Shown piece after piece: positions 9,868 through 58,940 of a DNA stretch of 64,000 nucleotides. Each line of letters begins with the position of its first letter. Positions within the stretch are counted from its first letter, which is position 1. This DNA is from Candidatus Poriferisocius sp. (GTDB lineage: Bacteria > Actinomycetota > Acidimicrobiia > Acidimicrobiales > Bin134). Where the stretch lies: NCBI GenBank assembly GCA_965221865.1, contig OZ244918.1:2664696-2728695 (forward strand). The letters run 5' to 3'. Below the pieces are notes generated by a model, which saw only the letters and a program-made list of their open reading frames with translations, ran no database searches and was not told the DNA's origin. The position numbers and the translations under genes are program-made.

Positions 9868-9873
9868 CTAGCA

Positions 9874-14041: not shown

Positions 14042-14089
14042 GTTTCTAGCTGACATACCACTTAAACGCATTCGGCTACTACTAGCATT

Positions 14090-18273: not shown

Positions 18274-18314
18274 CGGCAACAAACAAAATGCCCGGCTTTT
18301 TGCATAACAGGGCT

Positions 18315-24873: not shown

Positions 24874-26288
24874 AGTGTTACTTGCTGAGTTAAATATCCG
24901 TCTGCTTCACGGAACCAAGAAAGGTCTTCATCTACAACGTGTGTGTATGTATCTCCTTTTTCAGAGGTGTATTTAATGAGCAGCTGCCATTTCCAGAAAC
25001 CTTGGCGGGGTATAAACCAACGGCAACGGTCGTGCTTAGCGGTCCATCTGCTATCTAAAGACAGCGTCTTTAGCGAAGGTTGTGTCCAGTTTGGTAACGA
25101 GTTGGGTTTACACCAAACGGTGGCTGGGTCATTTCTAGAAAAAGCGTTACGGTACCACTGTTTATGTTGTGGACTCAGGCTGAGCCAGAGCGAGGCTGCT
25201 TGCTGGGCGTAGGCAGCAGCAGCCACATTGCCTGGATTTTGCAGCTTGCGTAGGTCTGGGTATTGATGGGGGAGTAGCTCCCGCAAGCTAACTCCTACAT
25301 GTGTTGCTTGCCATAAACATCCGTTGCTTGAAGCATCTACTATGTTCAGGTTGGCTCCAGACCGAAGTGCTACCCAATGTCGTGCTACCTTTGATGGGCT
25401 TGACGCTGCAGTAAGAAACTGGCGCCCACCTGGCACCTCAGGATGATGAGGTGACGTTAGGGTACTCTGATAGGGAACGATTGACTCCCAGCGCAATGCT
25501 TGTTGTAGATTTTGGGTTTTTGAGCTATTCCAAGAGGTTGTGCAAACCTTGATGGGCGCTTTTGGGGTGTGAGGAGTATTTGGTGGGTTGACTACATGAG
25601 GATTTTTTGGGCGCTTTTCCCAAGGGCAGTTGTTAGGTATGGTATCGGCTAAACAAGATGGCACACACCTGCCGTTGGCACATGGGTTAAAAGTTTTCCA
25701 ATCAATCTTAGGCGGTTTGGGTTTTGGGCTAGGTTTTGGACTAGGCGGCAGAACCACACTTGGTGAAGTGGGGGTGGAAGTAGGTTGTGGCACAGGCTTG
25801 GTTTGAGGTTTTGGAGTGGAAGTTGCCGTGGGCAGGTGTAGGTGGAATACCTTGACACCCTTTGTGCCACGCCAGCGATAGTTGATGTTGCGGTGCCCCT
25901 TCCAAATAGTCCAGCTGCCCGGTCCGAGTGATTTTGGAGTGCTGCTGTGAGGCCCGTGACCGCAATTGTTGCTGCTACGACACGAACTGGTAGACGAACG
26001 CGAGGTAATAACAATCCCACACAAGTCTAAGAGCATGATAGTGCAGTGGGCAGGTATTCGCGCTGTGTAATGAGTCCAGTAGTTGATATGCGTCCAACTA
26101 ACTGAGCAGTTCAACACATTCGCAGGACACGATTTGCCTGTTCCGCTAACCGATACGAGCTTAATTTTGGTGTGAGCTATAGCCTCATGTGCTGTTGGGG
26201 CTACCACTGCTAACCCAACTACTGGTATTGTCACAATTAACAAAGCAATGGCTAGGCGTACCGCTGCTGGTTTCAACCACGCACTCAT
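24867..26288 (-). CDS. exported Pro-rich hypothetical protein
   Basis: 473 aa with an N-terminal TM/signal segment and a PKPQTKPVPQPTSTPTSPSVVLPPSPKPSPKPKPP linker. It overlaps the cpaB start by 7 nt. Confidence 0.6.
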   Translation of the reverse strand: MSAWLKPAAVRLAIALLIVTIPVVGLAVVAPTAHEAIAHTKIKLVSVSGTGKSCPANVLNCSVSWTHINYWTHYTARIPAHCTIMLLDLCGIVITSRSSTSSCRSSNNCGHGPHSSTPKSLGPGSWTIWKGHRNINYRWRGTKGVKVFHLHLPTATSTPKPQTKPVPQPTSTPTSPSVVLPPSPKPSPKPKPPKIDWKTFNPCANGRCVPSCLADTIPNNCPWEKRPKNPHVVNPPNTPHTPKAPIKVCTTSWNSSKTQNLQQALRWESIVPYQSTLTSPHHPEVPGGRQFLTAASSPSKVARHWVALRSGANLNIVDASSNGCLWQATHVGVSLRELLPHQYPDLRKLQNPGNVAAAAYAQQAASLWLSLSPQHKQWYRNAFSRNDPATVWCKPNSLPNWTQPSLKTLSLDSRWTAKHDRCRWFIPRQGFWKWQLLIKYTSEKGDTYTHVVDEDLSWFREADGYLTQQVTLW

Positions 26289-27346
26289 GGCTGTGCCTCA
26301 AAAGCCCTGTAGTCGCAGCCAACTGCGAGATGGTCAGGGGGTCGGGTGTCTAAGCCAACTTGACGGGCCCACACATAACCCAAAAACGCATGAAAGCAAG
26401 CATGTGGACTATCTGGCAGGTCTAGTTCTAAGTTTTCTTGTGCGTGTGCTTGGATTATTTCTAGTAGAGGTTCCCAGCAAGACGGTAGAGAGGCGTTAAC
26501 TTCTACACTGTTAGATGAAGCATCAGCCATGGCTTGTGGGTAAGCTGCGTTGGGGTTGTTCGCAACTAGCTCTAAGCACTGTAACTTAAGCCAACCAGAG
26601 GTGTGTACGCGGGCAGGGTCATACCCGCGAGAGGCACAAATGGCTAAAGGTCTTGCAGCGTCATCTGCATGTAATGAATGATGCATAACAGAGTTTGCGA
26701 TGCAAGCCAAGCCTGCATCGCTCCACCAGTATCTAGCCACAAGTTCGGTTAGATGCGCTAAACCGCCTAAGCATGAGTACAACCCCTGAGCTGCTAAAAA
26801 TCCTTTGAGTGCATCAGAAGGTTCCACGGCGACACTCAGGTGGTAGCGGATGCATTCTTGAAGCCATAAACGGCTGCTAGCAGTATCTTCTATGGTGCCA
26901 TCTTGATGTCCAAGCTGCTGGCGCAGGGTTTCTAGTGCTCTGTGGCTTGCAGGAACTTTGCGGACAACAGGTAGGGCTTGGTTATCCCAAGCCAGCACAT
27001 CATTGCCAAACATAAAGAAAGGACTATCTTGGGTTGCTTGTTGAACTTCGGCGATGTCAGGCTTGGTGGTTTTTGTTATAGGTGAAGAGGTTACAACTGC
27101 GTTTTGTGAAACTTTGACTGCTTGATCTTTAGGATTATCAAGTTCTAGTGCTGTTTCGTGTGTGACAGGTGGTTCATCCGGCAGAAGCTCTAAGCGATCT
27201 TGTTGTGCATTGATTAGCAGGGGCGTAGAGGTTTGCGTAACCGTCTCGGCAGTTAACTTAACAGCGGCTGATTGAGTGGAGCCGCACCCCGTAGCACAAG
27301 CAGACAAGATCGCAAACAAGCACACAAAAATGCGGGTAATGCCCAT
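26285..27346 (-). CDS. lipoprotein, hypothetical
   Basis: 353 aa with signal peptide plus lipobox FAILSAC. It overlaps the next gene by 4 nt and is the first gene after the candidate promoter. Confidence 0.6.
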   Translation of the reverse strand: MGITRIFVCLFAILSACATGCGSTQSAAVKLTAETVTQTSTPLLINAQQDRLELLPDEPPVTHETALELDNPKDQAVKVSQNAVVTSSPITKTTKPDIAEVQQATQDSPFFMFGNDVLAWDNQALPVVRKVPASHRALETLRQQLGHQDGTIEDTASSRLWLQECIRYHLSVAVEPSDALKGFLAAQGLYSCLGGLAHLTELVARYWWSDAGLACIANSVMHHSLHADDAARPLAICASRGYDPARVHTSGWLKLQCLELVANNPNAAYPQAMADASSNSVEVNASLPSCWEPLLEIIQAHAQENLELDLPDSPHACFHAFLGYVWARQVGLDTRPPDHLAVGCDYRAFEAQP

Positions 27347-27415
27347 GAGTCCCTCTTGGCGTGATTCTAAACAGGGGCCTCAAGGCCGATACGCATGGCT
27401 TAAGCCAGCAATTTC

Positions 27416-27444
27416 ACTTTACAAGATTAGTTTTCAGGTGTCAA
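27416..27444 (-). promoter_or_regulatory. candidate sigma70-type promoter for the Tad-associated operon
   Basis: On the minus strand, TTGACA, a 17-nt spacer, then TAAAGT. It lies in an AT-rich intergenic region about 70 nt upstream of the ATG at 27346. Confidence 0.4.
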
Positions 27445-27504
27445 TAGATTATTTTAAGATATTTTGAGTTTTATAAAATATGTGTCATGCATCAGATTTT
27501 AATG

Positions 27505-27987
27505 TCAACCCAATTTCAGGTTATCTGGCTTACACGCCCACTGTGACCATGCCTCTTGTTCTGTGACATCCTCGTAATAGCGGATGAATTTAGCGGCGCG
27601 CAGGTTGGTAGCAGGGTCGTGTAAATCTACGGGTTGCCCATTGTGGCCTGGAAACCGCCATTTTTCAACATCCCAGCCTGTTAGCCACCCCTCATTGATC
27701 TGCATCAAACCAATCGATTCCTGACCCCATTCTTCCATGTTACGCTGAGAAGGGTCACCATAAGATTCACACTGTATAACAGCAAGAACATCGTTTACTT
27801 CACCTGCGGGAAAGGTCTCCTCCACGAGCGCCCGCCACCGCTCCACCGAGGGGGCGAAGATGCTTTGGGAAGAAGCTCCAATAAGGGTGAAGGAACTCAA
27901 CAGTAGTGCTGAGATGCTAAACAGTGTTAAAAAGATCTTTCTTAATGGCATAAAGATAGATGAGCTATTTAGGGAGAGGGCTTTCAA
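27505..27987 (-). CDS. secreted lytic transglycosylase (SLT domain)
   Basis: 160 aa with a signal peptide. The catalytic CES motif (VIQCESYGDP) and GLMQIN motif are typical of family-1 lytic transglycosylases. Confidence 0.7.
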   Translation of the reverse strand: MKALSLNSSSIFMPLRKIFLTLFSISALLLSSFTLIGASSQSIFAPSVERWRALVEETFPAGEVNDVLAVIQCESYGDPSQRNMEEWGQESIGLMQINEGWLTGWDVEKWRFPGHNGQPVDLHDPATNLRAAKFIRYYEDVTEQEAWSQWACKPDNLKLG

Positions 27988-28374: not shown

Positions 28375-28704
28375 TCAGTTACCCCTTGCTTGTGGGTCTT
28401 CAACGTCTGTTTCAGACGGCAAAGGGCAAAGCGCCTGCCGCGCGCTAGCAGCAGAACCGTTGTACTTGGAAGGCCAGTATGCAACCCATTTCCCGTTAGG
28501 GGTGTTGCGGTGTTCATCACATTCTAAGTAGCTCAGGTTTTCCCAACCTTGCTCATCAATTGGGATGGGATGGTCACCGCTAGTACTCAATTGCCCGCCT
28601 ACGCCGAGGCGCGACACCGAACCAGCACCACAACCGGTAACACATAGCAACACCAACAAGCACACAAGACCACCTATACGGTACTTGTTATGTGAAATCA
28701 CCAC
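28375..28704 (-). CDS. lipoprotein, hypothetical (last gene of the vWA/tubulin-like operon)
   Basis: 109 aa with lipobox LLCVTGC. It overlaps the upstream gene by 7 nt. Confidence 0.55.
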   Translation of the reverse strand: MVISHNKYRIGGLVCLLVLLCVTGCGAGSVSRLGVGGQLSTSGDHPIPIDEQGWENLSYLECDEHRNTPNGKWVAYWPSKYNGSAASARQALCPLPSETDVEDPQARGN

Positions 28705-29381
28705 ACCTCCCCGCAGCGCACAAACAAACGTCGCAAGTTCTCAGCACCGCTCTTTTTACCTAAATGAAACTTTATGGTAATAGGTGGGCTTGAGTTTTCG
28801 GGGAAAGTGATTATTGCATCTACAGTAGCGGAATCTGACAAAGCATGTCGTTTAAGTTCAGTGCTGAACCTGTTTAGCGCGTACAAGTTGCCTGCTTGCG
28901 TTTCAATGCTTCTTCCAATAAAAGGCCAGATACCGCCTTCGCTATCTTTATCTACCACCATAGGGATGGGGCGAGATTGTTCTTTCTCATCCTTGCTGAA
29001 TACTAATTCAACTGCTTCCCATCTAATTGGAGGCCATGCCTTTAGGATGAGATTTGATGGTACTAAAGTCACTTCTATTTCCCCATCACCATCATTGTTC
29101 CTATCTCTGCAAATAACATCTAAACGGCTTGGCACCCACAGATTGTTATGCTGTTCATCTGCTAACCTGCGTTCCTGCCAGTTGAAAGCGTAATTGTGTG
29201 CCGCATAATACACTCCGCCTTCTGCCACATCATCACCATCAATAGTAGGGAAGCTCATAATAGGAGCAGAACGTAACTGCCAGTTATTGTGGTCGGGAAC
29301 AGCCTCAGGCCAATCGCTAGCACACCCTGTGGCTAACAAAGCTAAACAGGTAAACATTCGCAATATTTTGGGCAATCTCAT
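28698..29381 (-). CDS. lipoprotein, hypothetical
   Basis: 227 aa with lipobox LLATGC. It overlaps the upstream gene by 4 nt. Confidence 0.6.
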   Translation of the reverse strand: MRLPKILRMFTCLALLATGCASDWPEAVPDHNNWQLRSAPIMSFPTIDGDDVAEGGVYYAAHNYAFNWQERRLADEQHNNLWVPSRLDVICRDRNNDGDGEIEVTLVPSNLILKAWPPIRWEAVELVFSKDEKEQSRPIPMVVDKDSEGGIWPFIGRSIETQAGNLYALNRFSTELKRHALSDSATVDAIITFPENSSPPITIKFHLGKKSGAENLRRLFVRCGEVW

Positions 29382-32212
29382 ACGTAATCTATTTCTTCAG
29401 CAAAATTACTAAATTGTTCTTGATTGGAGTGAGGCTGCAGGTGATATGTAGCTAAAGATTGCGGTGCCACAACATTGGTAATATGCAGTTCCCATTGAAA
29501 CATGGTTAGCATCTCACCGTCAGCGCTTTCAGCTGATTGTGTATCTACAGAGACAGTGGCAGCAAGACCAGGCCGTGCAGCTGTTGGCACTGTGATTCTG
29601 CTTAGATCAAATGAATGATCTACCACACGTGAATTCAAAAGAACCTCAGCATTTGGCCACCAGCCCATACGTCCTCCATATGGGGTTACAGAGGTTAGGT
29701 TTTTGGTGTGTGCTGCCATAGCATCTGTTGCAACTTCTTTTAAGCGTTTTTCCACCCAATCTTGTGCAACCGTAACACCATGTTCGTTGCTTTCCACAAA
29801 TTTAACCCAATCAGTGCGAGCACCAAAAACGGTGCCTTTTCCTTGTCGGTGACGGTGCTGTACTGTTTCGTAGGCAGAGGTGTCTTGTTCGGGTAATTCA
29901 AAACCTGAAACTATTTTATATTGGTAGGCACTTTTCCATGCTTTTTTAATTTCGTGATGTAGTTCGGTTAGCCACCCTGTAGTAAAAATTTGCGCGAGTT
30001 TTTCTCGATCTTCTTCTGAAACTTCGTTGGTCAGAGATGCTGATCCAAGCAACATGCCAGCAGGCAGAGTAACACTGTCAATCCAGCTCAAGTCAGGTTC
30101 TTTGCTTGTAGCGTCTTTTGTTAAATCTCCAAATGGTTCGTGAAGTAGGCGCGCGATTACTCTTTGATGATCAGCAAACTGTCTAACTAACACAGCCATA
30201 CGCAAAAACTCACTAGCGTAATGTAGTAATTGAGCGTCATTATTTTTGCGCTGATAGTTAGCTAGTTCAAGGGCATCCACAGCAGTAATAAAGTTCTTGT
30301 AGATTGATGTGATTTGCAGGAGTGCTATTGCTACTAAGATCAGCACACCGAAAACCACAAGCGGTACTAATGGGAAAGATGTAGGAGGATACAACCTTAA
30401 AGGTGCATTACCTCCAAACAGTGTCTGCCAAATAGTGTTAATAATAGAAAACCGCTGATCTAAAATAAAAAATAAACCTATAAGCAAACTAGCGGCTGTG
30501 ATAACAGCAAAACGGCGAGCATCTCTTTGTGCTTTGATTGCTACATCATATTTTTCTGCTTCATCGTTTTTAAGACAAGCATGCTTGCAGAAATTATCAA
30601 TCACCTCTGCAACTGCATCTTGCAAAGTTTGCTGAAGCCGTAGCACAAACTGTCCGCTTTGGGTGTTTGCGGTTTGAAACTCCTTGTGCTCCGTTTTAGG
30701 TTCTTGGTCTGCAGGTTTAGTTTCTTGTTTGTCAGCGCTTTTTGGGGTCTCAGAGCTTGTAGCATCAGGTGGAGGAAATCTAGAGGTTTTAGGCACATCA
30801 TTGGGTATAGACTTTTTAGGTTGTTCTTCGTTTATAGTCTGTTCGCTAGAAGCGGAGGCTTCCGTGCTTGCAGGTGCGAGAGATTTAGGTTTATTGATTG
30901 GGAATTTGAATCTATATGCATAGCTTTTGGGGGCTTTTTCATTGCTGTTTGTGAGGGAGCTTGCAGTATTTGGAGGAATAATTTTGTGGGTATCTAGCCA
31001 AACAAGCTGAGAACTATTTTGACCTTGAGGTCGTTCAACGCCGTGAGGCAGTTGCCCGCCATCTACCAAGCTAAAACATGTTTGATACAAAGCTTCCCAC
31101 GATTTAGGTGTTGGTTTCTCGGCTTCTGCAGCCACATCCCCGTGTATATCCACACCGCTTTCAATTAAAGCAGCTTCCATCGCTTCTATGCCGCCTGTTT
31201 CGATGAGGTAGCGAATATGTGCTTGCATTGCTTGTTCTCTGGCTACGTAATCAACAGATATATCTTCGGTTTCCGTGTTGGGATCTTGGAACCCTGTGGC
31301 AGTTAATAAACCCCACATAGCCTTCTCGGTATCTGATTGAACAGCAGCAGTAGGCACCGGTTCCCAAAATTTGATGTTGGCAGATTTAAATGGTGGTGAG
31401 GGTTTAGGCGCGTGACAAATAAGCTCCATAACATGAGCGGTTTCAACAGCAACCTGTTTTGGCGGGACTGAGGTAAATGTTGCTGCTTCTGAATTACCTC
31501 CATGTGGAAGAGGCCATGGTGTTGACTGGGGGATAACACCACTTCTTGCTCCGTAGTCTGTGTGTGTTGAACAAATTACCCGCATAGACGCATGGCAAAA
31601 CCTCACCCCCATAATTCCGGCATCATGAGGGGTGATTTCCGTGAACCCTTCTGAAGGGCAATTCCAACCTCCAACAGCGCTCAGCCCTGCTAACAACGCT
31701 TGTGCTAGTGCTGCATCTGATTTCGCATCAAGTGTTTGCGACTGCTGCGAACCAGAGGAGGCAGCACGCCCATCACACACCAAATGAAAATCCCAATACG
31801 AACTAAAAGGTGCATCTCCAGCAGAACCTTCAGGTAGCGCTGGTGCCACCGTAGCTAGACGTAAAGAGTTGCGTAAGCCGGTTGGAAGGACGTTTTGAAT
31901 AGCCTGCAATGCGTAGTCTTCATCTGCGTACTGCTCAGCGGTCATCCCGTAAGGGCGCAGGGACAGCACTGACATTGCTGTAACTTCTTGCTCATTGAAT
32001 ACGGTGCTCAGTGATTGAGTGTGATCACTTTTGCAATGCCATGCTTGAGCTTCGCCTTGTTGCTCACTAGCCTTTCTAAAATCAGTGATAGCGGTGCGTT
32101 GCAAAATACCTAACTTGGCGCACACTCGCAAAAAATCTACTGCTGCTTGAGTGGTTTCTGGCAAAGTAAGCACAAGAACAAACCTGCCAGCGCGCTCAGG
32201 CGACATACTCAT
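29378..32212 (-). CDS. 944-aa hairpin-anchored membrane protein, no recognisable domain
   Basis: Two TM helices at about residues 568-584 and 614-634. KAQRDARR precedes the first helix, which suggests N-in topology. Large domains flank the hairpin. A P/S/E/K-rich linker spans about residues 420-515. 4-nt overlaps on both sides. Confidence 0.7.
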   Translation of the reverse strand: MSMSPERAGRFVLVLTLPETTQAAVDFLRVCAKLGILQRTAITDFRKASEQQGEAQAWHCKSDHTQSLSTVFNEQEVTAMSVLSLRPYGMTAEQYADEDYALQAIQNVLPTGLRNSLRLATVAPALPEGSAGDAPFSSYWDFHLVCDGRAASSGSQQSQTLDAKSDAALAQALLAGLSAVGGWNCPSEGFTEITPHDAGIMGVRFCHASMRVICSTHTDYGARSGVIPQSTPWPLPHGGNSEAATFTSVPPKQVAVETAHVMELICHAPKPSPPFKSANIKFWEPVPTAAVQSDTEKAMWGLLTATGFQDPNTETEDISVDYVAREQAMQAHIRYLIETGGIEAMEAALIESGVDIHGDVAAEAEKPTPKSWEALYQTCFSLVDGGQLPHGVERPQGQNSSQLVWLDTHKIIPPNTASSLTNSNEKAPKSYAYRFKFPINKPKSLAPASTEASASSEQTINEEQPKKSIPNDVPKTSRFPPPDATSSETPKSADKQETKPADQEPKTEHKEFQTANTQSGQFVLRLQQTLQDAVAEVIDNFCKHACLKNDEAEKYDVAIKAQRDARRFAVITAASLLIGLFFILDQRFSIINTIWQTLFGGNAPLRLYPPTSFPLVPLVVFGVLILVAIALLQITSIYKNFITAVDALELANYQRKNNDAQLLHYASEFLRMAVLVRQFADHQRVIARLLHEPFGDLTKDATSKEPDLSWIDSVTLPAGMLLGSASLTNEVSEEDREKLAQIFTTGWLTELHHEIKKAWKSAYQYKIVSGFELPEQDTSAYETVQHRHRQGKGTVFGARTDWVKFVESNEHGVTVAQDWVEKRLKEVATDAMAAHTKNLTSVTPYGGRMGWWPNAEVLLNSRVVDHSFDLSRITVPTAARPGLAATVSVDTQSAESADGEMLTMFQWELHITNVVAPQSLATYHLQPHSNQEQFSNFAEEIDYV

Positions 32213-35200
32213 ACTTCGTCTGCTTCTATGTAGTCAGACTTAAGTGATTCAATGAGTTGTTCGTAAACGGGGATATATAAAACTGCTAGCTCACCTGTCA
32301 GCACACCTTTTTCAGGTGAACCGGTTCTGTCGCGTGGTATGAGTTTTGACGAAATTTGATCGCCACATCGCTTGAAACGATCAATCTGTTCTTTTAGATA
32401 TTGCTCAGCAGATGCGATGCGGTCATCTTTGTTGGTACCAGCAATTTTAGGGTCACATAACGGTTGAAACGAATTGTGATGGCCAGCTTCAAGGTTTTTG
32501 CGAAGCACATCAGATACCGGGTTGGTGATATGCGTGGAACCTATATTGTGGAGAATCTTATATGAGTGTAAGCGGCGTTCTTGTTCCTCGCTGTTTGCGG
32601 CACCGTAACACAAAGCCAAACTTTCAAGTAGTGCGGCTAAGATGTCGGCAGGAATAGGTGGTTGGGTTAGCAACGGCCACGGAAACTCGGCTGTAGAGCG
32701 CCCATCAGGTGAAACAATTTTGCAAGCCCGATCAACCTCAGCGGTCATCAAACCACATAACCGTGCTATAGCAAAGCCACGGATAATGTTCTCTAGGGGT
32801 TCACGGGGTAACGGCACAAAAGCATCCAAGGGTCGCGAACGTCGCCACTGCCAGAAAACCGATGATAGTGTGTCCCCGCTATTTAACACCTCATCTGCTA
32901 TAGGTTCAGTTAGCGAACGTACTGTGAGTGGATGCACGGGCACTTCAAAATAACTAGTCAACATTACCGATGGCATGTCTTTGAGCGCAGGTGACCACTG
33001 TTTTCCCATTTCCCCAATCACATCATTTACAACACCAGCAGCAGGATCACCGTCTTTGAAGGGAAAGGCTTGTTTAATAAAATTGATACGTGGGGGATGG
33101 TTGTCAGCTAGGCACATCATTGGACTGCTTTTCTGCTTAGCCATATACAGATTCTGACGGAACCTTCGCAGCCTTTCTGTGTAATCTACACGATTTTGCT
33201 GAGTATGTGGGTCGACCTGTGATAGGTAGGCAGCAAGCCCCTCTCCCACATATCTGCGATAACTACTACCAGCCCTGTTAGCCCACATCCTAAAGGATTC
33301 CAACCATCGCTCTGCGCTAGCATCGCATTCCAAGGTGGCATATTGCCCTGGTGACCAACTAGAACCACTCTTAGGGCGTAACAATGAGGGTATTTCATCT
33401 AAAAGCCCATTTGGGTGTCCCGCCACCATCAAATATCTGACAGGATCAATTGGCAGATTACCGCATTGCACCCCAGGCTCATTGGCTTCATTGCATAGCT
33501 CCGCTAGCTGTTCCATCCACTGGTCGTGACTCTCTAATGGCAGTTCTATAGCTGATGGATGATATTTCACTGATATTCCAGACTCGCTAGGTTCAGGCCA
33601 TTCAGACACAGGTTCTGTATCTAACTCTTCTAGAAGTGCCTTACCAGTGCTGTTCAACAAACGAAATATCTCCTCCAAAACCTCTTTTTGAGCGTGTTTG
33701 ACAAGGTCGGCAGCAATATTGAGTTGATTAGCTCCCCAGTTGTAAGCTAGCCCCACTGACATTTTGTCTAGTGCATCATCTAAAGATGCATTACCTGGTG
33801 CTAGGTTGCCAGAGGCATATCCAATTTGTTGCAATCCACCATCTACATTGTCATTATACTCGTGCATGTATCTTCTAGCTTTTTCTGCTAAGTTATTCAC
33901 GTGCTTTTGTGCTATAGACATAGCACCTTCTATAGCGCTTACAGCGACTGGTAAAGATGACCATGCTGCTATTTCAGAAACAGCACGACAAGTGTCGAAA
34001 ACTAGTTTTTTACGCCATTCGGTGGCTTCTTGAGCATCAAACAAACGGGCAAAATCGTCTTTGATTTTAGTGGCCTTGTTTTTGACCTGATCTCGCATTG
34101 CTGAAGCGGGCATCGCCTGACTACCAACACCTTCTTTAAGCTGCCCTAATGCTTCAGCACGACGATCCGCCAAGTCCTTCTTACTAGCAAAAAAATCTTC
34201 AACAGCAGCTAAACCACCCCCAGAATCGTTTGCGCGTACTTCAGCTGAAAACACTGCTTGCGCCCGTTCTGAACCTAACTGCTCAACCCAATCTTCATCT
34301 GTGAGTTTAGGGTCCCGTGTCACGCTGAGCCGCAAATGCCCGTTAAGCAACATGCCCATAGCTGTGCGCGCTAATTTATGTTCTGCCCATCGGTTGAAAC
34401 GGTCTCGGCCAACAGAAACCTTAGATACCCCAAATGAAGACAAAACACCGTCTTGACTGTCTTCAGCAAACGGATACCCACCACCAAGCGAGGTAGCTTT
34501 TTGGCTGGAGGCAGCCTGCCAGTTAGCAACAAGAAAGTTGGTAATCTCTTCTTGCACCACATCAGACGTAACCCAAGTTGATAGTGCATCACCTACTGCT
34601 AAATACACTTCAGAAGTTGACTGAAAGCTGGACCCGCCTTGTTGTTCTCGTCCGATCAAAAAAATTGAATGCGGGCCTGTGCCGCGGGTGTTCACAGTGC
34701 GCGGCACCAAAGGTAAATCGTTAAATTGTCCTTCGCGACTCCAGTAAGCAGCGAGCATCTCGCTAATAAATGCAAGCGAGTTAGCAGCCAAACCACTCTT
34801 ATTGTCCATCTCAAATATGTCATTAGACAACAACGCCAGCACGGGATGAGCGCCTGCTGGGTCGATTGCTCGCAACAAAGTGACCACATCAAGCGCCACT
34901 CCTGCCCCTGTCCCACCGCCGATGGATGAACACACTAGCACTAAAGGTTCTTGCAATCCACGTTCCGAATCTGCTGCCACTGCACAGCCAAGATGGCGTG
35001 CCACCGCGTCTAAGCTGTGCTGTGCGCCACGTATTGTTTGAAAAGCGTTACGCAACATATCGTCCACAGAACTGTGAAAAGTATTTAACGCTGCAGCCCT
35101 ACCAATAGCACGGCTTGAGCCGGCACCTTTAGCTAAAGGCACTCTGGCACGTTCAGGATCGGGTATCCACCCGCTGAGATCGCTAGCACGAATCTTGCCT

Positions 35201-35469
35201 CCAGCATCTTGTTGTGCCTCTAGCGACCTATACAAATCAGGGTAAGTGCGGTGTTTGCTGCTTATCGATATGTAGTCGTCAGCAGGTAGTGGTGGGATTT
35301 CAGAAGCGGCTTCTTGTGTAATAGGGGTGTCTATCCCCAAAAAACGCCAGCATTCAGGAATACCAAGCTCCCACTCAACTTCTAGCAAACGCTTATGTAC
35401 AGCTTCGCGTATGTGACGTACTACTTTGGTGCCACTTCCGCCGCACCCCACCATTAGGACTGGCTGCAT
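32209..35469 (-). CDS. giant tubulin/FtsZ-superfamily GTPase-like protein
   Basis: 1086 aa with no signal peptide. It has three motifs in FtsZ order: T1-like VGCGGSGTK (aa 7-15), T3-like KGAGSSRAIGRAAA (aa 114-127; compare FtsZ GLGAGxNPxxGrxAA), and T4 signature SSIGGGTGAG (aa 181-190; compare GGGTG[ST]G). A helical extension of about 730 aa follows. Confidence 0.7.
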   Translation of the reverse strand: MQPVLMVGCGGSGTKVVRHIREAVHKRLLEVEWELGIPECWRFLGIDTPITQEAASEIPPLPADDYISISSKHRTYPDLYRSLEAQQDAGGKIRASDLSGWIPDPERARVPLAKGAGSSRAIGRAAALNTFHSSVDDMLRNAFQTIRGAQHSLDAVARHLGCAVAADSERGLQEPLVLVCSSIGGGTGAGVALDVVTLLRAIDPAGAHPVLALLSNDIFEMDNKSGLAANSLAFISEMLAAYWSREGQFNDLPLVPRTVNTRGTGPHSIFLIGREQQGGSSFQSTSEVYLAVGDALSTWVTSDVVQEEITNFLVANWQAASSQKATSLGGGYPFAEDSQDGVLSSFGVSKVSVGRDRFNRWAEHKLARTAMGMLLNGHLRLSVTRDPKLTDEDWVEQLGSERAQAVFSAEVRANDSGGGLAAVEDFFASKKDLADRRAEALGQLKEGVGSQAMPASAMRDQVKNKATKIKDDFARLFDAQEATEWRKKLVFDTCRAVSEIAAWSSLPVAVSAIEGAMSIAQKHVNNLAEKARRYMHEYNDNVDGGLQQIGYASGNLAPGNASLDDALDKMSVGLAYNWGANQLNIAADLVKHAQKEVLEEIFRLLNSTGKALLEELDTEPVSEWPEPSESGISVKYHPSAIELPLESHDQWMEQLAELCNEANEPGVQCGNLPIDPVRYLMVAGHPNGLLDEIPSLLRPKSGSSWSPGQYATLECDASAERWLESFRMWANRAGSSYRRYVGEGLAAYLSQVDPHTQQNRVDYTERLRRFRQNLYMAKQKSSPMMCLADNHPPRINFIKQAFPFKDGDPAAGVVNDVIGEMGKQWSPALKDMPSVMLTSYFEVPVHPLTVRSLTEPIADEVLNSGDTLSSVFWQWRRSRPLDAFVPLPREPLENIIRGFAIARLCGLMTAEVDRACKIVSPDGRSTAEFPWPLLTQPPIPADILAALLESLALCYGAANSEEQERRLHSYKILHNIGSTHITNPVSDVLRKNLEAGHHNSFQPLCDPKIAGTNKDDRIASAEQYLKEQIDRFKRCGDQISSKLIPRDRTGSPEKGVLTGELAVLYIPVYEQLIESLKSDYIEADEV

Positions 35470-35503: not shown

Positions 35504-38500
35504 TTAATCTGCTAAAGGATCGTTGGACCACGGATCGTAGTCTGCTAAAGCGTCATTGCTAAACGGATCTGTGGTTGTAGGCGCGGGCTCTGAAAGGGTT
35601 TCTGCTAAAGGATCAGAATCCGTGCCCTTGGGTTCTGCCTGGCTGCTATTGCTACCGCTATTGCTATTGCTGGCGCTAGCATTTTCGGTGTTTTCAGCTT
35701 GGATAGCGTCATATATTAACACAGCCCTATTTTTGGCATCAGCAATATAGTCGGCACGGTCATTTGCTGCTTCTTCAGGCGGTATATCCCAAATAACTAC
35801 TTTTGGAATATCGTCTTTATCCGACACGGCTACCCACTTGTCTGATAGCCGATCTCCAAGCACGGCTACAAGCCTGCCACCTCGCTTTACACGTCTGCCT
35901 TCAGACCAGCAGTCGCCTGTTTGCGATGTTGCGGTAGCAACAATGTTAGGAGCGATTCCTGCTAGAGGGCGTAGCCATGAGGTACGTAAACGAACTAAGC
36001 CCATGTGAGCTTGAGTAGCGCGTTTCACCAACGCGGCGCAAACACCTGGTTCTGCTGCTTGAGGTGAGTCAACAAGCGGCACCACAACATACTCTGGTAA
36101 ACCTATAGGTACCCATCGTCTCCGCCAAACCCCTAAAGCAGCCACCGTGAGCAACAGAACCCCAAGCAACACTAAAAATAACGGCCAAGGGTTACCAGGG
36201 AATGGGATTACTACAGATGCCTGACCTGAAGTTAACGGTGCTGTTTGGTTATTAGCTAGCAAGCGCTCTAGCTGATCGCGGTGATCTTGTGAAGCTTCTT
36301 CATGCCATCGAATATCGTCTAAATGCTTGCGTAAAGCAGTGAAATCAGCATTAACTGTAACCGTCGCGGCTACAGATATATCTTCAACACCTTGTGATTC
36401 GATCTCTAAAGAATCGCAACCCAAGCGCCCTTGCCCCACTGGAGTAGGTGGCCAACCACCCTGTGATGAGCACTCCCACCTATCTTCTCCTAATACGATG
36501 AGAGATGACCCTTTTTGAGGAATGGTTATAATGCCATTAGCAAGATGCGCAGACCAATCACCGCCACCTGCTCCGCCTGATAAACGCAAACGCACATCTA
36601 CATTACGTGTAGCACCGTTGGGAGGCTGTAAACCTGTGACTATTTCTAACTTATTGGGTAGCAGCCGTCCACCACTAGCTTCTACATTTTTCATCCACTC
36701 AACTACTTTTTGGCGGCCTTGACACGCGCTCACATCTTTTCCGAACTTGTTGGCATCTGATCGATCTCTAGCATTTTTAAAAGCTGATGTGATTGGCACC
36801 GGAGGAGATATAGGTCTGCGCCATTGTCTTAGTTCTGGACTTGGACCGTAACTAAATGATTGAATGATTGTGGGTTGAAGCACCACATCTTGCCCGTTGT
36901 CTATAATTTGACTGATATTACCGCCCCCTTGAACACTGCAATCTGGGCTGGTGGGTTTTGTTCGTGGTTTGAGTTCAGCGTCTCTACGAATAAGCGTCCC
37001 TATCATATCTTTAACAGAAAAATCTCCATTTTCTGTGTTAACAGGGATTGGGTCAACAGATATGTCCCCTGTATCGTTTGACCATGTTGGATAGATTAGT
37101 TCAGCTTTTTCTGTCGTCGGTTCAAAAATAGCAGGCGCGAAATGTAAAGAATCACCCTTATTAGAGATTGCAGCGCTCACACTTTTGGGAACATCCACAT
37201 AGCCCACGAGATCGCCCTCACTGTTGATTTCTGCATCCCGAAGCTTAGGTGACTCAGATGATACACGCTTCACCGCAGCAGCTATCTGAGATGCTTCTTG
37301 GCGCCCACGCGAGGTTGTGCCCCAAAACACTACTTTCCATGTTCCCTCCCATTGTGCAGTGTCTGGAAAAGCTGCGCGATGTCCAATCACTTCTTGGCGA
37401 CTGTCATAGGGGCGGAAAACCCAAAAGTTGAAAGGCTGCACATTAACCCATCCCGACTCGTCGGCGTCGGCTGAGCGCACTTGCTCCGATCTTTGCCCAT
37501 CAGGAGAGATAAGTTCAAACCCGATCTCTTTGGGATACAAAATACCGCGCCTTAACTCGGTTTTGTCTATGTACAAGCGAAAAGCATCCACACCTTCATC
37601 TAAAGAAAACGAGTAAATGCATTCATCCGCTACTTGATTAACCTCACACATTGTATATTCTTGCTCGGGCGGTGCAGCGTCTGTTCCGCACTTCTCGCCT
37701 GGCAACTGCCCCTCACAAACCGAAGATGCGATGTGTTCGCCAATAATCTCGTCTAGCTGGCCAGCTAAATCGCTAATGTTTTCATAAGGCTTGTAGCTAC
37801 CGCGCAATGGAACAGGACATGGGTTTGTGCTATCTGCGCCATACAGTCGCTGTAAATGCTCTAACACAATTGCACCAGGTTGGCTTAGCACTGCAGATAA
37901 AACTATGACATTAGCATCTACTGTCATCTGGCTAACTTCAGGGTTACCTCCATCTGCGCCACACAGCTGATTAAGCACCAAGTTTTCAGCAGGCGTTAGC
38001 TCGCCCGGTTCTTCTGTGTCGTGCTCGCCATCTGTAAACCAAACCAACACATTGCAACTAGAGCGTTGTGATTGTTGAAACCTTTGAGCTGCACCTTCTA
38101 AAGCACGCTCATAATCAGTCCATGTAATAGTTGCCCCAATCTTGTCGCGTATTGCAGCGCTAGCAAGACTTCTATTTGCCTCTTCGGTGGTTGACCAGTT
38201 GATGTGTTGGAGGTACTCATCGCTGAACCCGTCTACAGCTACACGAATATCCACGTTGTCCCCATAATTTGTCGATAAGGTTAACAAAGTGGCCACAGAT
38301 CGCACAACCCCTGTAACCCTATGTTTATTGGGGTCGTTCCTTTGAAGACTTGAAGAAGCATCCACCAAAAAGAGTACGTTTACCGCAAACTCTCCATTTG
38401 CCAGAGCCTGACATTGTGAGGCTAAAACAGAGTTTTCGTTATCTTGAGGTTGGGCCACAGACACGCCAGCAAAGCAGGTAGATAAAACTGCGATGCCCAA

Positions 38501-38536
38501 AACTGAGCACACCAAACGAGATAACACTGTAATCAA
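35504..38536 (-). CDS. exported, single-pass transmembrane von Willebrand factor A (vWA) protein
   Basis: 1010 aa with a signal peptide (..FAGVSVAQPQ). MIDAS motifs are VLFLVDASSSL and WFTDGEHD. A TM helix lies at about residues 784-804 and is followed by RRRW. The cytoplasmic tail of about 202 aa ends in acidic DPLA-type repeats. Confidence 0.8.
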   Translation of the reverse strand: MITVLSRLVCSVLGIAVLSTCFAGVSVAQPQDNENSVLASQCQALANGEFAVNVLFLVDASSSLQRNDPNKHRVTGVVRSVATLLTLSTNYGDNVDIRVAVDGFSDEYLQHINWSTTEEANRSLASAAIRDKIGATITWTDYERALEGAAQRFQQSQRSSCNVLVWFTDGEHDTEEPGELTPAENLVLNQLCGADGGNPEVSQMTVDANVIVLSAVLSQPGAIVLEHLQRLYGADSTNPCPVPLRGSYKPYENISDLAGQLDEIIGEHIASSVCEGQLPGEKCGTDAAPPEQEYTMCEVNQVADECIYSFSLDEGVDAFRLYIDKTELRRGILYPKEIGFELISPDGQRSEQVRSADADESGWVNVQPFNFWVFRPYDSRQEVIGHRAAFPDTAQWEGTWKVVFWGTTSRGRQEASQIAAAVKRVSSESPKLRDAEINSEGDLVGYVDVPKSVSAAISNKGDSLHFAPAIFEPTTEKAELIYPTWSNDTGDISVDPIPVNTENGDFSVKDMIGTLIRRDAELKPRTKPTSPDCSVQGGGNISQIIDNGQDVVLQPTIIQSFSYGPSPELRQWRRPISPPVPITSAFKNARDRSDANKFGKDVSACQGRQKVVEWMKNVEASGGRLLPNKLEIVTGLQPPNGATRNVDVRLRLSGGAGGGDWSAHLANGIITIPQKGSSLIVLGEDRWECSSQGGWPPTPVGQGRLGCDSLEIESQGVEDISVAATVTVNADFTALRKHLDDIRWHEEASQDHRDQLERLLANNQTAPLTSGQASVVIPFPGNPWPLFLVLLGVLLLTVAALGVWRRRWVPIGLPEYVVVPLVDSPQAAEPGVCAALVKRATQAHMGLVRLRTSWLRPLAGIAPNIVATATSQTGDCWSEGRRVKRGGRLVAVLGDRLSDKWVAVSDKDDIPKVVIWDIPPEEAANDRADYIADAKNRAVLIYDAIQAENTENASASNSNSGSNSSQAEPKGTDSDPLAETLSEPAPTTTDPFSNDALADYDPWSNDPLAD

Positions 38537-38886
38537 ACTGCCACCAGCAAACTAGCAGCAGACCATGCCAGCAATCCTGCTGCTAGCAACGTTGCCCAAC
38601 TATATATAAGCCTAAGAACATGCGGAGAAGAAGCGTTGTGCTGTCTTTTACCTTGTATCTGAGCTGTAGCAGCGGTTACATGCAGCCCCCAGCACACACA
38701 AAAACAAGCTAGCACCACGCCAAAACTGTTAGACATCAAACCAACGATCACAGCAACAATGAGACTCCCGCCAAGTATCACTTTGCCAAATCCCCGCAAA
38801 GAAACACGGCTAGGCTTTATTGGCGCTGAAGATGTGTGTGCCTGCGCCCACCGATCACCTGAAGATTGTGCTAGAGGATCAGGCAT
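38533..38886 (-). CDS. small three-TM membrane protein (first long gene of the operon)
   Basis: 117 aa with three hydrophobic helices and an N-terminal MPDPLAQ. It overlaps the vWA gene by 4 nt. Confidence 0.55.
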   Translation of the reverse strand: MPDPLAQSSGDRWAQAHTSSAPIKPSRVSLRGFGKVILGGSLIVAVIVGLMSNSFGVVLACFCVCWGLHVTAATAQIQGKRQHNASSPHVLRLIYSWATLLAAGLLAWSAASLLVAV

Positions 38887-39173: not shown

Positions 39174-42100
39174 TTAGTCGTTGTCTTTGATGGTGATGAT
39201 GGCCTGCCCGTCGCCGATCTCCACACTCTTAGGATCTGACAACATGATCTGGAACTTCTCATTGGACTCTTTAATAAAATCATCCCTCACATAAACACCC
39301 AAATGCGCCCTAGTGAAGCCCGGACGGAACCTTAACGTCCCACCTCGCCCACCAAAATCATCGCCAATAGAGGCAAACTCAGTCCCACTGCCAATAGCTT
39401 TAGTCACCCATCTCACGGTCACTAAATGATCCACCGGCTTGCTTAGCACAGCAACAAAATTATGCCAACCACCCCAACCATCACCCTCACCGACAACCTG
39501 ATCAGCGATCACCACTGTCGCCGCATCCACAGCTGGTGTTGGCGGGTTGTCGTCGTCTGTGATGTTTACGGTTGCGGAGGCTGCGGTGGAGTCTACGTCG
39601 TAGGTTGCGCCGTCGGTGATTGTTGTGGTGACTGAACCGTCGGTTTCGTCGGTGGTGTCACCGGTGGTTGATACTGTGAGGGTGGCTGTGCCGCTGGTGG
39701 GAATGGTGACGGTGCGGTTGCCGGTGGTGACGCCGAAGCTACCTGATGCGGTTACGTTCACTGTTACAGTAAGTGAACTTAACGGCGTAGGACTCGCGGT
39801 GAGAGTGAACGACGCCGCACTGCCTTCAGTCACATCGCTGCCTGCAGTGATACTCACCACCGGTGTTGGCGGGTTGTCGTCGTCTGTGATGTTGACGGTT
39901 GCTGAGGCTGCGGTGGAGTCTACGTCGTAGGTTGCGCCGTCGGTGATTGTTGTGGTGACTGAACCGTCGGTTTCGTCGGTGGTGTCACCGGTGGTTGATA
40001 CTGTGAGGGTGGCTGTGCCGCTGGTGGGAATGGTGACGGTGCGGTTGCCGGTGGTGACGCCGAAGCTACCTGATGCGGTTACGTTCACTGTTACAGTAAG
40101 TGAACTTGACGGCGTAGGACTCGCGGTGAGAGTGAACGACGCCGCACTGCCTTCAGTCACATCGCTGCCTGCAGTGATACTCACCACCGGTGTTGGCGGG
40201 TTGTCGTCGTCTGTGATGTTGACGGTTGCTGAGGCTGCGGTGGAGTCTACGTCGTAGGTTGCGCCGTCGGTGATTGTTGCGGTGACTGAACCGTCGGTTT
40301 CGTCGGTGGTGTCACCGGTGGTTGATACTGTGAGGGTGGCTGTGCCGCTGGTGGGAATGGTGACTGTACGGTTGCCGGTGGTGACGCCGAAGCTGCCGGA
40401 TGCGGTTACGTTCACTGTTACAGTAAGTGAACTTGACGGCGTAGGACTCGCGGTGAGAGTGAACGACGCCGCACTGCCTTCAGTCACATCGCTGCCTGCA
40501 GTGATACTCACCACCGGTGTTGGCGGGTTGTCGTCGTCTGTGATGTTGACGGTTGCTGAGGCTGCGGTGGAGTCTACGTCGTAGGTTGCGCCGTCGGTGA
40601 TTGTTGCGGTGACTGAACCGTCGGTTTCGTCGGTGGTGTCACCGGTGGTTGATACTGTGAGGGTGGCTGTGCCGCTGGTGGGAATGGTGACTGTACGGTT
40701 GCCGGTGGTGACGCCGAAGCTGCCGGATGCGGTTACGTTCACTGTTACAGTAAGTGAACTTGACGGCGTAGGACTCGCGGTGAGAGTGAACGACGCCGCA
40801 CTGCCTTCAGTCACATCGCTGCCTGCAGTGATACTCACCACCGGTGTTGTGGGGGAAGCACATAGCGCTTTTTCTTGTTCGATGCGTTCGAGTTCTTGGC
40901 GGACTGCTTGCCAGCCGTTCCAGATCTGTTCGGCTGCGGTTGCTTCTGTGGCTGTGAAGGGTTCAAGTGTGTCGGAGGTTTCGACCCCGAAAGCGATGAG
41001 GACGCGTAGCCAGTTATGGCTGTAGTCGGATCTGGTGCGGTTGGTTTCGTGGTAGCTTCTCACCAGGTCGACTAGATCGGTGCTGGTTGGAGTGACCGTG
41101 CAAACCGGTGGCGGTGTGGTGAGCGGAACGCGATCAGCGGACGGTATCAGCGTCAACGCTGTGATACCTGGATGATCTGCGGCGTATTTGTAAGCGCGGT
41201 ACACCCAAGTGTCGCTGGAGTTAGCGGGAGAGTCGCCTTTGGGTACAATCTCAGTTCCTCTGGCGAGTGGGGAAATGTAGTGCCAGACCACCGTCCCGTC
41301 AGATGTCACTTCGCTGATTCTGGCGTGGTTGCCCTCGGTGATGAGCGTATTGCCGTTGGGCAGTCGCTGAGCGTTCGACATGATCCAAGTGTGCTCAGCA
41401 AGGCGATGAGTCCACAAAAGAGTCGGCAGCATGAACCCCTTACCAGCCCGCAAGTAGGCATGGCCTGAGGAGGGGAAGGCCAGCTCATCTGCCGATGCGT
41501 AGTTGCGCAGGAACCCGGGATGCTCATGGCCATTGTTATAGATCAACACGTTCCCTGCGCCCTGCAACCCGCTGGGTATCCAATGGGCGTTGTGTGGGAA
41601 GAACAATCGCTGATCGATTTTGCTCCCGTTATCGTGGGTACGCGGGTTGCCGTAGCGGTAAAGCAGATTTCCGCCTTGGTTGCTATTGCCACCGGAACCG
41701 GTCGCCGCCTCCGTTGTGGTCGTGCTGTGGTCGATCACCCAGGCTTCGCTGAAGTGACGGGAGGTGATCAAAATCTGATCCAGAGAAGCATTGTAATCTA
41801 TGGAGTTAAGGTGCGTCAGATGGTGCGGATTTTGTAAAAATCCGTTGCTGCCGTCGCGTATCTGACATATCCCATAGTTGATATCGATAAGTTCGGGATG
41901 ATCAGCGATCGTGCCATAGTTGTCTTTGGTGGAGTCATGATCTTGAATCAGATGATCCCAGACGTTCCACTTCCAGACAACGGTCCCGCCGTTCGAGCCA
42001 GTGGGTTTGATCTCGATGATCGAGTCTACTTCCAACCCCTTAGTGCCGAGGCAGGAAGGGTCCGCGCCAGCGGCGATAGATTGTGCTCTTGTGTAATATT

Positions 42101-42848: not shown

Positions 42849-42999
42849 GACCAACTCCTTGCGATTGTGCTGAATCTGCAATCAATCTTACATGGTCTCT
42901 ACCCTTTTTTGTGCGAATTGTTCGTGTAAACAGCTTGCCACAGGGGAGGGGAGTGGCGGTTACAGTGTCACCACATGCACGCTATGCTCTCTGTTTCCT

Positions 43000-48697: not shown

Positions 48698-48943
48698 GTG
48701 TTGAATATTGCGAAAATTGATGTTGGGCATGCTAATTATTATGCGCCTCGAAATGGTGAAGGTCGTGAGAGTGCGTCGCTTTACGGTTCGGGCGGTTCGG
48801 GCGGTGGGAGTGTGGGTGGTGCTGCGAGGTATTACGCGGATGGTAAGGCAAATTCGGTCGACCACCGAAACAGTATCGGCTCGCTAAATGGCCGGTCGCG
48901 GGTCCTTACGATTGGAAAAACCCGTCGCCCGGGGTGCTGTTAG
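48698..48943 (+). pseudogene. stub of a MobF/TrwC-type relaxase N-terminus
   Basis: MLNIAKIDVGHANYY...ARYYADGKA resembles the conserved relaxase start (MLSIAKL..G...YY...DYY). Similarity is lost after about 50 aa, and the ORF ends inside the next gene in another frame. Confidence 0.4.
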
Positions 48944-52324: not shown

Positions 52325-52464
52325 ACCAATACCCACACAACAAACAACAAACCACAGCACTAAACAAACTTAAAGGCTAAAACATGTACACAACACTATC
52401 AAACACATCAAAATAATGCGGAATGAAGTTCACCCTGTTTACAGCTACGACCCGTTCCGAATTC

Positions 52465-53472: not shown

Positions 53473-53477
53473 GTTGT

Positions 53478-58911: not shown

Positions 58912-58940
58912 AGATTAGAGAATTGCTGGCACCGCGTGTA

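Follow-up and report, generated by a model that had tools for sequence, protein, structure and literature searches.

A member of the FtsZl1 (Tubulin_2) family with a tubulin/FtsZ-type nucleotide-binding domain, encoded in a conserved envelope operon of Acidimicrobiia

FtsZl1 (FtsZ-like 1) was described by sequence analysis by Makarova and Koonin in 2010 as a family of proteins of about 1050 amino acids (aa), which ranks with the most diverged lineages of the tubulin/FtsZ superfamily (PMC2875224). In that description, inserts separate the T1 and T4 loops, the T6-H7/T7 region is not confidently identifiable, the FtsZ C-terminal domain is absent, a long coiled coil and a helical C-terminal domain follow, and an operon partner carries a von Willebrand factor A (vWA) domain (PMC2875224). 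Further companions are frequent but not universal, being lineage-specific, and comprise a diverged P-loop GTPase, a Ser/Thr kinase, OmpA-family proteins and membrane proteins; the family typically coexists with canonical FtsZ, and “membrane remodelling” was predicted for it (PMC2875224). A later survey places Tubulin_2 proteins as a divergent outgroup (PMC9871819). The DNA analysed here, a 64-kb stretch of Candidatus Poriferisocius sp. (contig OZ244918.1, positions 2,664,696 to 2,728,695; hereafter the window, at its full length), encodes a 1086-aa protein, which is a member of this already named family with its own Pfam model (PF13809, Tubulin_2). The locus brings no new kind of system. What it adds are confident structural models, clear negative results for the T7 loop and the C-terminal domain, and the definition of a five- to six-gene cassette of the Acidimicrobiia type.

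The features of the FtsZl1 type are present in this protein, which has inserts between T1 and T4, a helical stalk, a C-terminal domain and a vWA operon partner, and which lacks T7 and the FtsZ C-terminal domain. Like the proteins described in 2010, it has helical middle and C-terminal parts, falls within a total length of about 1050 to 1100 aa, and is encoded in an operon with a vWA-domain gene beside lineage-specific membrane proteins. Unlike other FtsZl1 lineages, this operon contains no P-loop GTPase, Ser/Thr kinase or OmpA genes, and has instead a two-helix partner of about 940 aa and lipoproteins. The absence of such companions does not exclude membership of the family, because they were called lineage-specific in the original paper (PMC2875224). 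The structural model also departs from the 2010 picture, in that the stalk appears in it as a helical hairpin formed within one molecule, and not as a simple, extended coiled coil.

With FtsZ and CetZ, the protein shares the fold of the nucleotide-binding domain and, in the same order and register, the glycine loop of T1, the GAG of T3 and the GGTG of T4. It differs from them by a domain that is larger by about 150 residues through inserts, by some 700 extra residues, by the absence of the activating C-subdomain, of the NxDxxD/E T7 loop and of the C-terminal tail peptide, and by gene neighbours that encode membrane proteins. Like TubZ and PhuZ, it is a diverged representative of this fold from bacteria or phages, and its structural matches include PhuZ (3zbp) and phage tubulins. 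Unlike these proteins, it is encoded on the chromosome in a membrane-protein operon, with no TubR or centromere partner, and has neither a C-terminal domain nor T7.

Fold and phosphate loops of the nucleotide-binding domain

The gene, its nucleotide-binding domain and the three phosphate loops are located as follows.

32209..35469, minus strand: FtsZl1/Tubulin_2 family gene, 1086 aa (open reading frame, Pfam PF13809, full-length homologues, AlphaFold2 model)
34315..35469, minus strand: tubulin/FtsZ-fold GTP-binding domain, aa 1-385 (AlphaFold2 secondary structure, Foldseek matches)
35425..35451, minus strand: T1-like glycine loop VGCGGSGTK, aa 7-15 (aligned to FtsZ GVGGGGGN; conservation)
35089..35130, minus strand: T3-like loop and start of H3, KGAGSSRAIGRAAA, aa 114-127 (extended hhalign alignment, conservation)
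34900..34929, minus strand: T4 signature loop SSIGGGTGAG, aa 181-190 (hhalign block, conservation)

The open reading frame at 32209-35469 starts with ATG and is preceded by a ribosome-binding site of the GGAG type. An initial annotation of this DNA, made from the letters alone, had reported a 1086-aa frame there, which is present, and had not given its strand, which is minus. It had also placed three nucleotide-binding motifs at aa 7-15, 114-127 and 181-190, and these positions are exact in the translated frame. A database protein of 100% identity is annotated with only 1081 aa, starting at Met6 (start region 35455-35469). The upstream ATG at 35469 is favoured by the conservation of residues 2-5, with P3 present in at least 90% of homologues, and by the predicted strand S1, which spans aa 4-9.

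Pfam PF13809 Tubulin_2 matches aa 5-370 over profile positions 1-354 of 356 with 137.6 bits (E=8.2e-40), where the cut-off of the family is 27 bits. Full-length homologues were found at 24-55% identity and 64 out of 64 carry the same domain. The closest relatives are metagenome-assembled genomes of Acidimicrobiia, many of them sponge-associated, together with a few cultured Actinomycetota (Aquihabitans sp. McL0605, Actinoplanes sp. NPDC048796 and Paractinoplanes rhizophilus). A HMMER scan with aa 1-400 against 1.84 billion representative proteins (clusters at 50% identity) returned about 771 clusters at E<=1e-3 and 232 at E<=1e-30; among the 150 clusters listed, nearly all proteins have about 1100 aa, with the domain at the N-terminus.

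The three loops are strongly conserved in an alignment of 197 homologous sequences, to which the frequencies given below refer. The GxGGSG of T1, which aligns with GVGGGG of FtsZ, is kept in at least 96% of the sequences, the T3 residues G115, A116, G117, R120, G123 and R124 in 91-99%, and the T4 residues S182, G185, G186, G188 and G190 in 99-100%. When 46 close homologues are considered together with this wider set, G8, G10, G11, S12, G13, A116, R120, G123, R124, S182, G185, G186, G188 and G190 vary little or not at all. Acidic residues of the nucleotide-pocket half are likewise conserved in 89-100% (D47, E53, D194, D217 and E237). Because of the Tubulin_2 match and of this conservation across homologues, the motifs are not a product of chance.

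T4 had been equated with the signature GGGTG[ST]G. Its GGGTG core is indeed there, but the protein reads GGGTGAG, with an alanine where FtsZ has serine or threonine, and the family consensus is AGGTGAG. The form of this signature used for tubulins in PROSITE is [SAG]GGTG[SA]G, which GGGTGAG (aa 184-190) fits. The wider spacing of the motifs proposed at the same time is borne out, with about 106 aa between T1 and T3 vs about 50 in E. coli FtsZ, and about 70 between T3 and T4 vs about 35.

The full-length protein was modelled with AlphaFold2 on 46 homologues, with a predicted local distance difference test score (pLDDT) of 89.1 and a predicted template modelling score (pTM) of 0.81. The modelled elements of the domain are S1 (4-9), H1 (10-30), S2 (41-47), S3 (66-68), H3 (120-148), S4 (176-182), H4 (187-202), S5 (210-214), H5 (224-243), S6 (268-272), two helices (285-301 and 303-323) and a strand (346-352). 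Their order is that expected for a tubulin/FtsZ nucleotide-binding domain, with T1 after S1, a GAG loop before the long H3, and GGTG after S4. Large inserts separate S2 from T3 and H3 from S4.

In Foldseek searches of the PDB, the leading matches are CetZ2 (4b45, E=5e-4) and Methanocaldococcus jannaschii FtsZ (2vap, E=9e-4, target-normalised template modelling score (TMt) 0.47), followed by dozens of tubulins and gamma-tubulins, Bacillus subtilis FtsZ and PhuZ (3zbp), all with a probability of about 1.0; TMt is 0.41-0.48 for targets of the size of FtsZ. Among viral models, the confident matches (probability >=0.99; ranks 1, 2 and 4) are phage tubulins only. Every significant structural match of the model is thus a protein of the tubulin superfamily. 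The initial annotation, which had suggested structure prediction as a check, had read the protein as a tubulin/FtsZ-type nucleotide-binding domain with insertions, and both the Pfam match and the structural matches to CetZ, FtsZ, tubulins and PhuZ bear this out. In the model, the tubulin/FtsZ nucleotide-binding fold extends over aa 1 to about 385; its phosphate loops T1, T3 and T4 are intact, and its inserts are large and family-specific.

At the sequence level, alignment of the 197-sequence profile with E. coli FtsZ by hhalign supports only the T4-T5 block (aa 176-223 vs FtsZ 97-141, E=0.0086), in which GGGTGAG is paired with GGGTGTG of FtsZ. T1, T3 and T5 are in register with E. coli FtsZ in the extended alignment, with near-zero confidence outside this block, and KGAGSSRAIGRAAA sits opposite FtsZ GLGAGANPEVGRNAA, where confidence is low. 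With the profile of the close homologues, only the T1 region is aligned (E=0.021). Confidence is lost after T5, and T6-H7 is not alignable to FtsZ.

T7 region, stalk and C-terminal domain

Beyond S6 and the end of the nucleotide-binding domain, three further regions can be distinguished.

34507..34617, minus strand: candidate H7/T7/H8 region, aa 285-321 (model, hhalign, conservation; tentative)
33610..34314, minus strand: helical stalk, aa 386-620, helical in the model from about aa 355 (AlphaFold2 models)
32212..33609, minus strand: C-terminal alpha/beta domain, aa 621-1086, mixed but mainly helical (AlphaFold2 pLDDT 91.7, Foldseek, conservation)

In FtsZ and tubulins, helix H7 is followed by the T7 loop with its catalytic acidic motif, NxDxxD in FtsZ and GxxNxDxxE in tubulin. 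In the modelled protein, S6 (aa 268-272) is followed by the helices 285-301 and 303-323, a loop, the strand 346-352 and a long helix that runs from aa 355 into the stalk. The NxDxxD/E motif is not present after S6, either in the protein itself or in the 197-sequence alignment. The best-conserved acidic positions in this part are E287 (67%), E307 (62%) and D356 (77%), and the conserved residues past S6 include the non-acidic Q306 (86%), N316 (94%), W317 (81%), G347, G354 and F358. A search for T7 acidic residues had been called for by the initial annotation, in which the loop could not be judged by eye; the family conserves no acidic motif of the canonical T7 kind, which answers the question in part. 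As a lead, helix 285-301 is paired with FtsZ H7, and SSFGxxKVxVGRDRF with FtsZ S7-H9, where the hhalign alignment extends at low confidence. A remnant of S7-H9 may tentatively be seen in, at most, one strand and one helix (aa 346-384).

The stalk holds a long antiparallel hairpin made of the helices 506-550 and 561-616. Its matches in the PDB are weak and of the generic helical-bundle type (Hbl-B, TolA, MxA, Mgm1 and dynamin stalks; probability <=0.35). When aa 380-1086 were modelled separately on 102 sequences, a pLDDT of 91.7 was obtained, and a Foldseek search of the PDB with this model gave no significant match (best E=0.087; only generic helical bundles such as Hbl-B, TolA, ferritin and dynamin stalk) and none to the C-terminal domains of FtsZ or tubulin. 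Similarly, no Pfam match to FtsZ_C or Tubulin_C was found in the protein. Because aa 380-1086 have no significant PDB match, the FtsZ/tubulin C-terminal domain is absent as far as these methods detect. The early remark that no FtsZ-type C-terminal domain is evident therefore stands, on both the Pfam and the structural results. That of about 730 aa of mostly helical sequence in its place is roughly right: the stalk is helical, while aa 620-1086 are mixed alpha/beta and mainly helical.

Hence the activating C-terminal domain of FtsZ and tubulin and the canonical T7 motif are missing, and a stalk of about 230 residues and a domain of about 470 residues are found instead. Within the latter lies a conserved Trp/Arg loop, FWQWRRSRPL (aa 872-881; family pattern FWxWRRxRxL), which might contact the membrane or a partner. 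The locus offers a clean example of a tubulin-type GTP pocket which lacks the usual catalytic partner elements and is joined to a stalk and to a domain with no detectable PDB relative.

The envelope operon and its conservation

The FtsZl1 gene is the third in a tight row of six minus-strand genes, in which neighbours overlap by 4-7 bp or stand 34 bp apart. Its five companions are given in the order of transcription.

38533..38886, minus strand: small membrane protein, 117 aa, three hydrophobic helices, first gene of the operon (sequence, topology)
35504..38536, minus strand: vWA partner protein, 1010 aa (Pfam VWA_2 and VWA, sequence, orthologues)
29378..32212, minus strand: partner membrane protein, 944 aa (sequence, topology, synteny)
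28698..29381, minus strand: predicted lipoprotein, 227 aa, lipobox LATGC (sequence, synteny)
28375..28704, minus strand: predicted lipoprotein, 109 aa, lipobox VTGC, last packed gene (sequence)

The gene of the 117-aa protein overlaps the start of the vWA gene by 4 bp, the vWA gene lies 34 bp upstream of the FtsZl1 gene, the start of the 944-aa gene overlaps the FtsZl1 stop (ATGA), and the 227-aa lipoprotein gene overlaps the preceding gene by 4 bp. A scan of the operon for promoters and terminators gave fewer sites than were obtained in shuffled sequence.

The vWA protein has a signal peptide, followed by the extracytoplasmic vWA domain (aa 53-176), a further large region outside the cytoplasm, a single membrane helix (aa 784-804) and a cytoplasmic tail of about 200 aa, which ends in an acidic low-complexity stretch. 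Its metal-ion-dependent adhesion site (MIDAS) is complete (DASSS, TDY and FTDG). All 27 orthologues conserve DxSxS, TDY and FTDG, and all 27 have the same topology, with a signal peptide, one membrane helix and a tail of 155-315 aa. The 944-aa protein has an N-terminal globular part, a disordered linker rich in P, E, K and T (about 430-530), membrane helices at 568-584 and 615-637, and a C-terminal domain of about 300 aa. It has no match in Pfam, NCBIfam, PADLOC or PDB sequences and no Walker A motif, and a search for homologues gave nothing but the protein itself. A profile made from 15 sequences of its family at related loci had no match among PDB sequences and no meaningful match in Pfam. 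More generally, no Pfam match beyond vWA was found for the partners of FtsZl1, and none in NCBIfam, PADLOC or PDB sequences; no Walker A motif, kinase domain or OmpA domain was found in any protein of the cassette.

Synteny was counted at 80 related genome loci, mostly of Acidimicrobiia. A vWA homologue is encoded directly upstream of FtsZl1 in 66 of these, a homologue of the 944-aa protein downstream in 34, and a homologue of the 227-aa lipoprotein in the same position in 16. The place of the 944-aa gene is filled, more widely than homology shows, by genes for proteins of about 900-1100 aa that have two or more membrane helices, and at many related loci a protein of 110-240 aa with two or three membrane helices occupies that of the 117-aa gene, with no detected sequence similarity. 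Gene order and membrane topology are conserved beyond detectable sequence similarity. The conserved core comprises the small membrane protein, the vWA protein, FtsZl1, the large membrane protein with at least two helices and a lipoprotein. The 109-aa lipoprotein is only tentatively placed in the cassette, since no homologue was detected at related loci. The set with a two-helix partner of about 940 aa and lipoproteins is seen in Acidimicrobiia and in some other Actinomycetota. The gene set is compact, well conserved and envelope-spanning.

In some lineages (L029, 13354-17898; L055, L057 and L062, about 13250-16480), 6-12 membrane helices in place of two are predicted for the protein encoded downstream of FtsZl1, apparently through repetition of a helical-hairpin unit. 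Genes next to the cassette in the window, i.e., a Tad-like cluster, an SLT lysozyme and arylsulfotransferase/Calx-beta neighbours, were syntenic with it in none of the 80 loci, by which the Tad/SLT cluster and the arylsulfotransferase gene were ruled out as parts of the system.

Possible functions and genomic surroundings

As its most likely function, FtsZl1 would form an assembly that is attached to the membrane, is regulated by GTP and is connected with an adhesion or sensor protein of the cell surface. In the proposed mechanism, FtsZl1 would bind GTP in the cytoplasm and be held at the membrane by the tail of the vWA protein, by the 944-aa partner or by both. It would self-associate through its stalk and C-terminal domain rather than through head-to-tail contacts of the FtsZ type, in which T7 is inserted into the pocket of the neighbour. 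The nucleotide state could then control the assembly of an envelope-spanning complex, whose outer face would bind a ligand through the vWA metal site, so that surface events and the cytoplasmic side of the membrane would be coupled, in one direction or the other. As T7 has no equivalent, GTP could be hydrolysed only with another catalytic residue, for which Q306/E307 and D356 (in the GRDRF motif), all moderately conserved, are the only candidates. In its action, FtsZl1 would thus resemble dynamin and other stalked GTPases associated with membranes more closely than an FtsZ filament that treadmills. This mechanism agrees with the “membrane remodelling” predicted in 2010 and makes it more specific (PMC2875224).

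Two functional analogies, and no more than analogies, can be drawn. Like dynamin and the bacterial dynamin-like proteins, FtsZl1 has an N-terminal GTPase domain, a long helical stalk, a distal domain and a predicted action at the membrane, while its GTPase fold is unrelated, being of the tubulin and not of the P-loop type. Like receptors of the integrin type, the partner has an extracytoplasmic vWA domain with a full metal-ion adhesion site, one membrane helix and a cytoplasmic tail, and its gene adjoins that of a cytoskeleton-type protein. Here homology is limited to the vWA domain, and both the ligand and the partner that binds the tail are putative.

The assignment of the 1086-aa protein to FtsZl1/Tubulin_2 and to the tubulin/FtsZ fold is close to certain. 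The whole explanation, in which an FtsZl1 fold lacking T7 and the C-terminal domain is combined with an envelope operon and the membrane mechanism set out above, is held to be probable, with somewhat better than even confidence, and the mechanism taken by itself is put forward tentatively. A number of observations weigh against this explanation. The sequence profile resembles FtsZ weakly (hhalign E=0.0086, with a probability of about 5% for a single FtsZ sequence), and the full-length family profile found no FtsZ or tubulin among PDB sequences, with noise only at E>=0.28. As a result, the superfamily assignment rests on the curated Pfam family and on the structural match; a weak similarity to FtsZ also fits the description of FtsZl1 as one of the most diverged groups of the superfamily. 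Residue T197 (34879-34881) in helix H4 is Asp or Glu in 97% of the 197 members, including all the closest relatives. The assignment of H7, T7, H8 and S7 is tentative, and the likeness of the stalk to those of dynamin, MxA and Mgm1 is not significant (probability <=0.2). Finally, GTP binding, GTP hydrolysis, oligomerisation, membrane association and partner contacts of FtsZl1 are all properties that we infer, and no experimental study of any member of the family was found in the searched literature.

The main rival explanation is an anti-phage or conflict system, in which the vWA protein would sense an invader at the surface and the tubulin-like GTPase would transduce the signal or execute a response at the membrane. 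In the window, two AbiE toxin-antitoxin pairs, an MNT-HEPN protein and genes of mobile elements are found close to the cassette. Of the two closest relatives examined, L081 has a giant Mrr_cat_2-ResIII helicase protein, AbiEii and an Mrr_cat nuclease in the flanks of the cassette (1-5979, 18022-18810), and L082 a GmrSD_C nuclease and leucine-rich-repeat-variant proteins (18014-18928). The distribution of the cassette is patchy, its partners evolve fast (15-30% identity where FtsZl1 keeps 25-40%), and some other families of the defence type occur in flanks, such as a CBASS-type cyclase, a type IIG restriction enzyme and a methylase. However, no match at E<=0.01 was found in PADLOC-DB v2 for eight proteins (six of the cassette and two non-conserved neighbours), no effector of a recognisable kind (e.g., nuclease, protease, NADase or pore former) was identified among the cassette proteins, and the searched literature contained no link of the FtsZl1 family to defence. 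Moreover, among 145 flanking open reading frames at 21 loci, no family recurs in more than four members and the flanks are mostly housekeeping genes. A role in defence is regarded as distinctly unlikely.

A true cytomotive filament like FtsZ, TubZ or PhuZ, acting in division, DNA segregation or cell shape, would be in keeping with the fold, with the intact phosphate loops and with the presence of CetZ, FtsZ and PhuZ among the best structural matches. It is nevertheless very improbable for a protein without the C-terminal activating domain and without a conserved T7 acidic motif, which has no TubR-like DNA-binding partner or centromere, whose conserved neighbours are all membrane or secreted proteins, and whose family typically coexists with canonical FtsZ (PMC2875224). 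A further proposal is an accessory or cargo module, either of the adjacent Tad-like pilus or secretion cluster, which lies with the SLT lysozyme directly downstream on the same strand (21046-27987), or of the conjugative element of the window, with its TraG/VirD4 coupling protein at 48934-50571. Yet the Tad, SLT and coupling-protein genes accompany the cassette in 0 of the 80 related loci, and about 390 bp separate its last gene from the SLT gene, which leaves this proposal with even less probability than the filament. A P-loop or Rossmann NTPase of another family with coincidental motifs, the outcome that the initial annotation had named as fatal to its reading, is favoured only by the weak direct sequence similarity to FtsZ; it is refuted by the Tubulin_2 match (E=8.2e-40), by structural matches to the tubulin superfamily only and by the absence of a Walker A motif, and its probability is practically nil.

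Studies of the FtsZl1 family could show how the tubulin fold works without head-to-tail polymerisation driven by T7, and by what a cytoskeletal GTPase is linked to an extracellular adhesion domain in bacteria. A bolder and, on present evidence, unlikely version would see the cassette as a prokaryotic “outside-in” machine. In this version, an integrin-like, metal-dependent vWA receptor would be coupled across the membrane, mechanically or allosterically, to a tubulin-fold GTPase, which would have lost the T7/C-domain polymerisation machinery and would have been rebuilt with a stalk and a new C-terminal domain as a dynamin-like, membrane-active enzyme. To our knowledge, such a mode of action is not known for any protein of the tubulin superfamily. 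If true, the machine could serve in surface sensing, in envelope or vesicle remodelling, or in a new surface-triggered immunity.

The remainder of the window holds several further loci. Upstream of the cassette, a gene at 39174-42881 (minus strand) encodes a predicted surface protein of 1235 aa with arylsulfotransferase-type and Calx-beta domains. It contains a 327-bp unit, repeated 4.0 times at 99% identity (39535-40849), which corresponds to four near-identical modules of 109 aa and coincides with a local anomaly in GC content and skew; the repeat is very recent or under homogenisation. Two separate AbiEi/AbiEii pairs (45337-46808, plus strand; 52465-54326, minus strand) and a nucleotidyltransferase-HEPN fusion (47096-48115, minus strand) lie within 20 kb of the cassette. 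To the right of the cassette, the following genes (48934-59735) point together to a conjugative or mobile element integrated there.

48934-50571: TraG/VirD4-type coupling protein
54885-55541: ParA-like ATPase
58384-58911: RNase_T exonuclease
58923-59735: HTH_17 excisionase-like protein

No tRNA gene was found in the 64-kb window. A spike in strand composition at 50-52 kb (GC skew -0.28, AT skew +0.36) is explained by low-complexity open reading frames rich in Pro, Thr, Gln and Asn (50462-52324, plus strand), and no tandem repeat was found there.

On the other side of the cassette, the Tad-like cluster (21046-27987, minus strand) comprises a T2SSE ATPase, a T2SSF membrane protein, a SAF-domain protein and unassigned genes, and is accompanied by the SLT lysozyme-like gene. 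At the left end of the window, a complete Pup-proteasome locus (172-10515, plus strand), by which this DNA is recognised as an Actinomycetota chromosome, encodes a proteasomal AAA ATPase, Dop-like and PafA-like members of the Pup ligase family, two proteasome subunits and two WYL-domain regulators, and is flanked by tRNA methyltransferase and signal peptidase genes.

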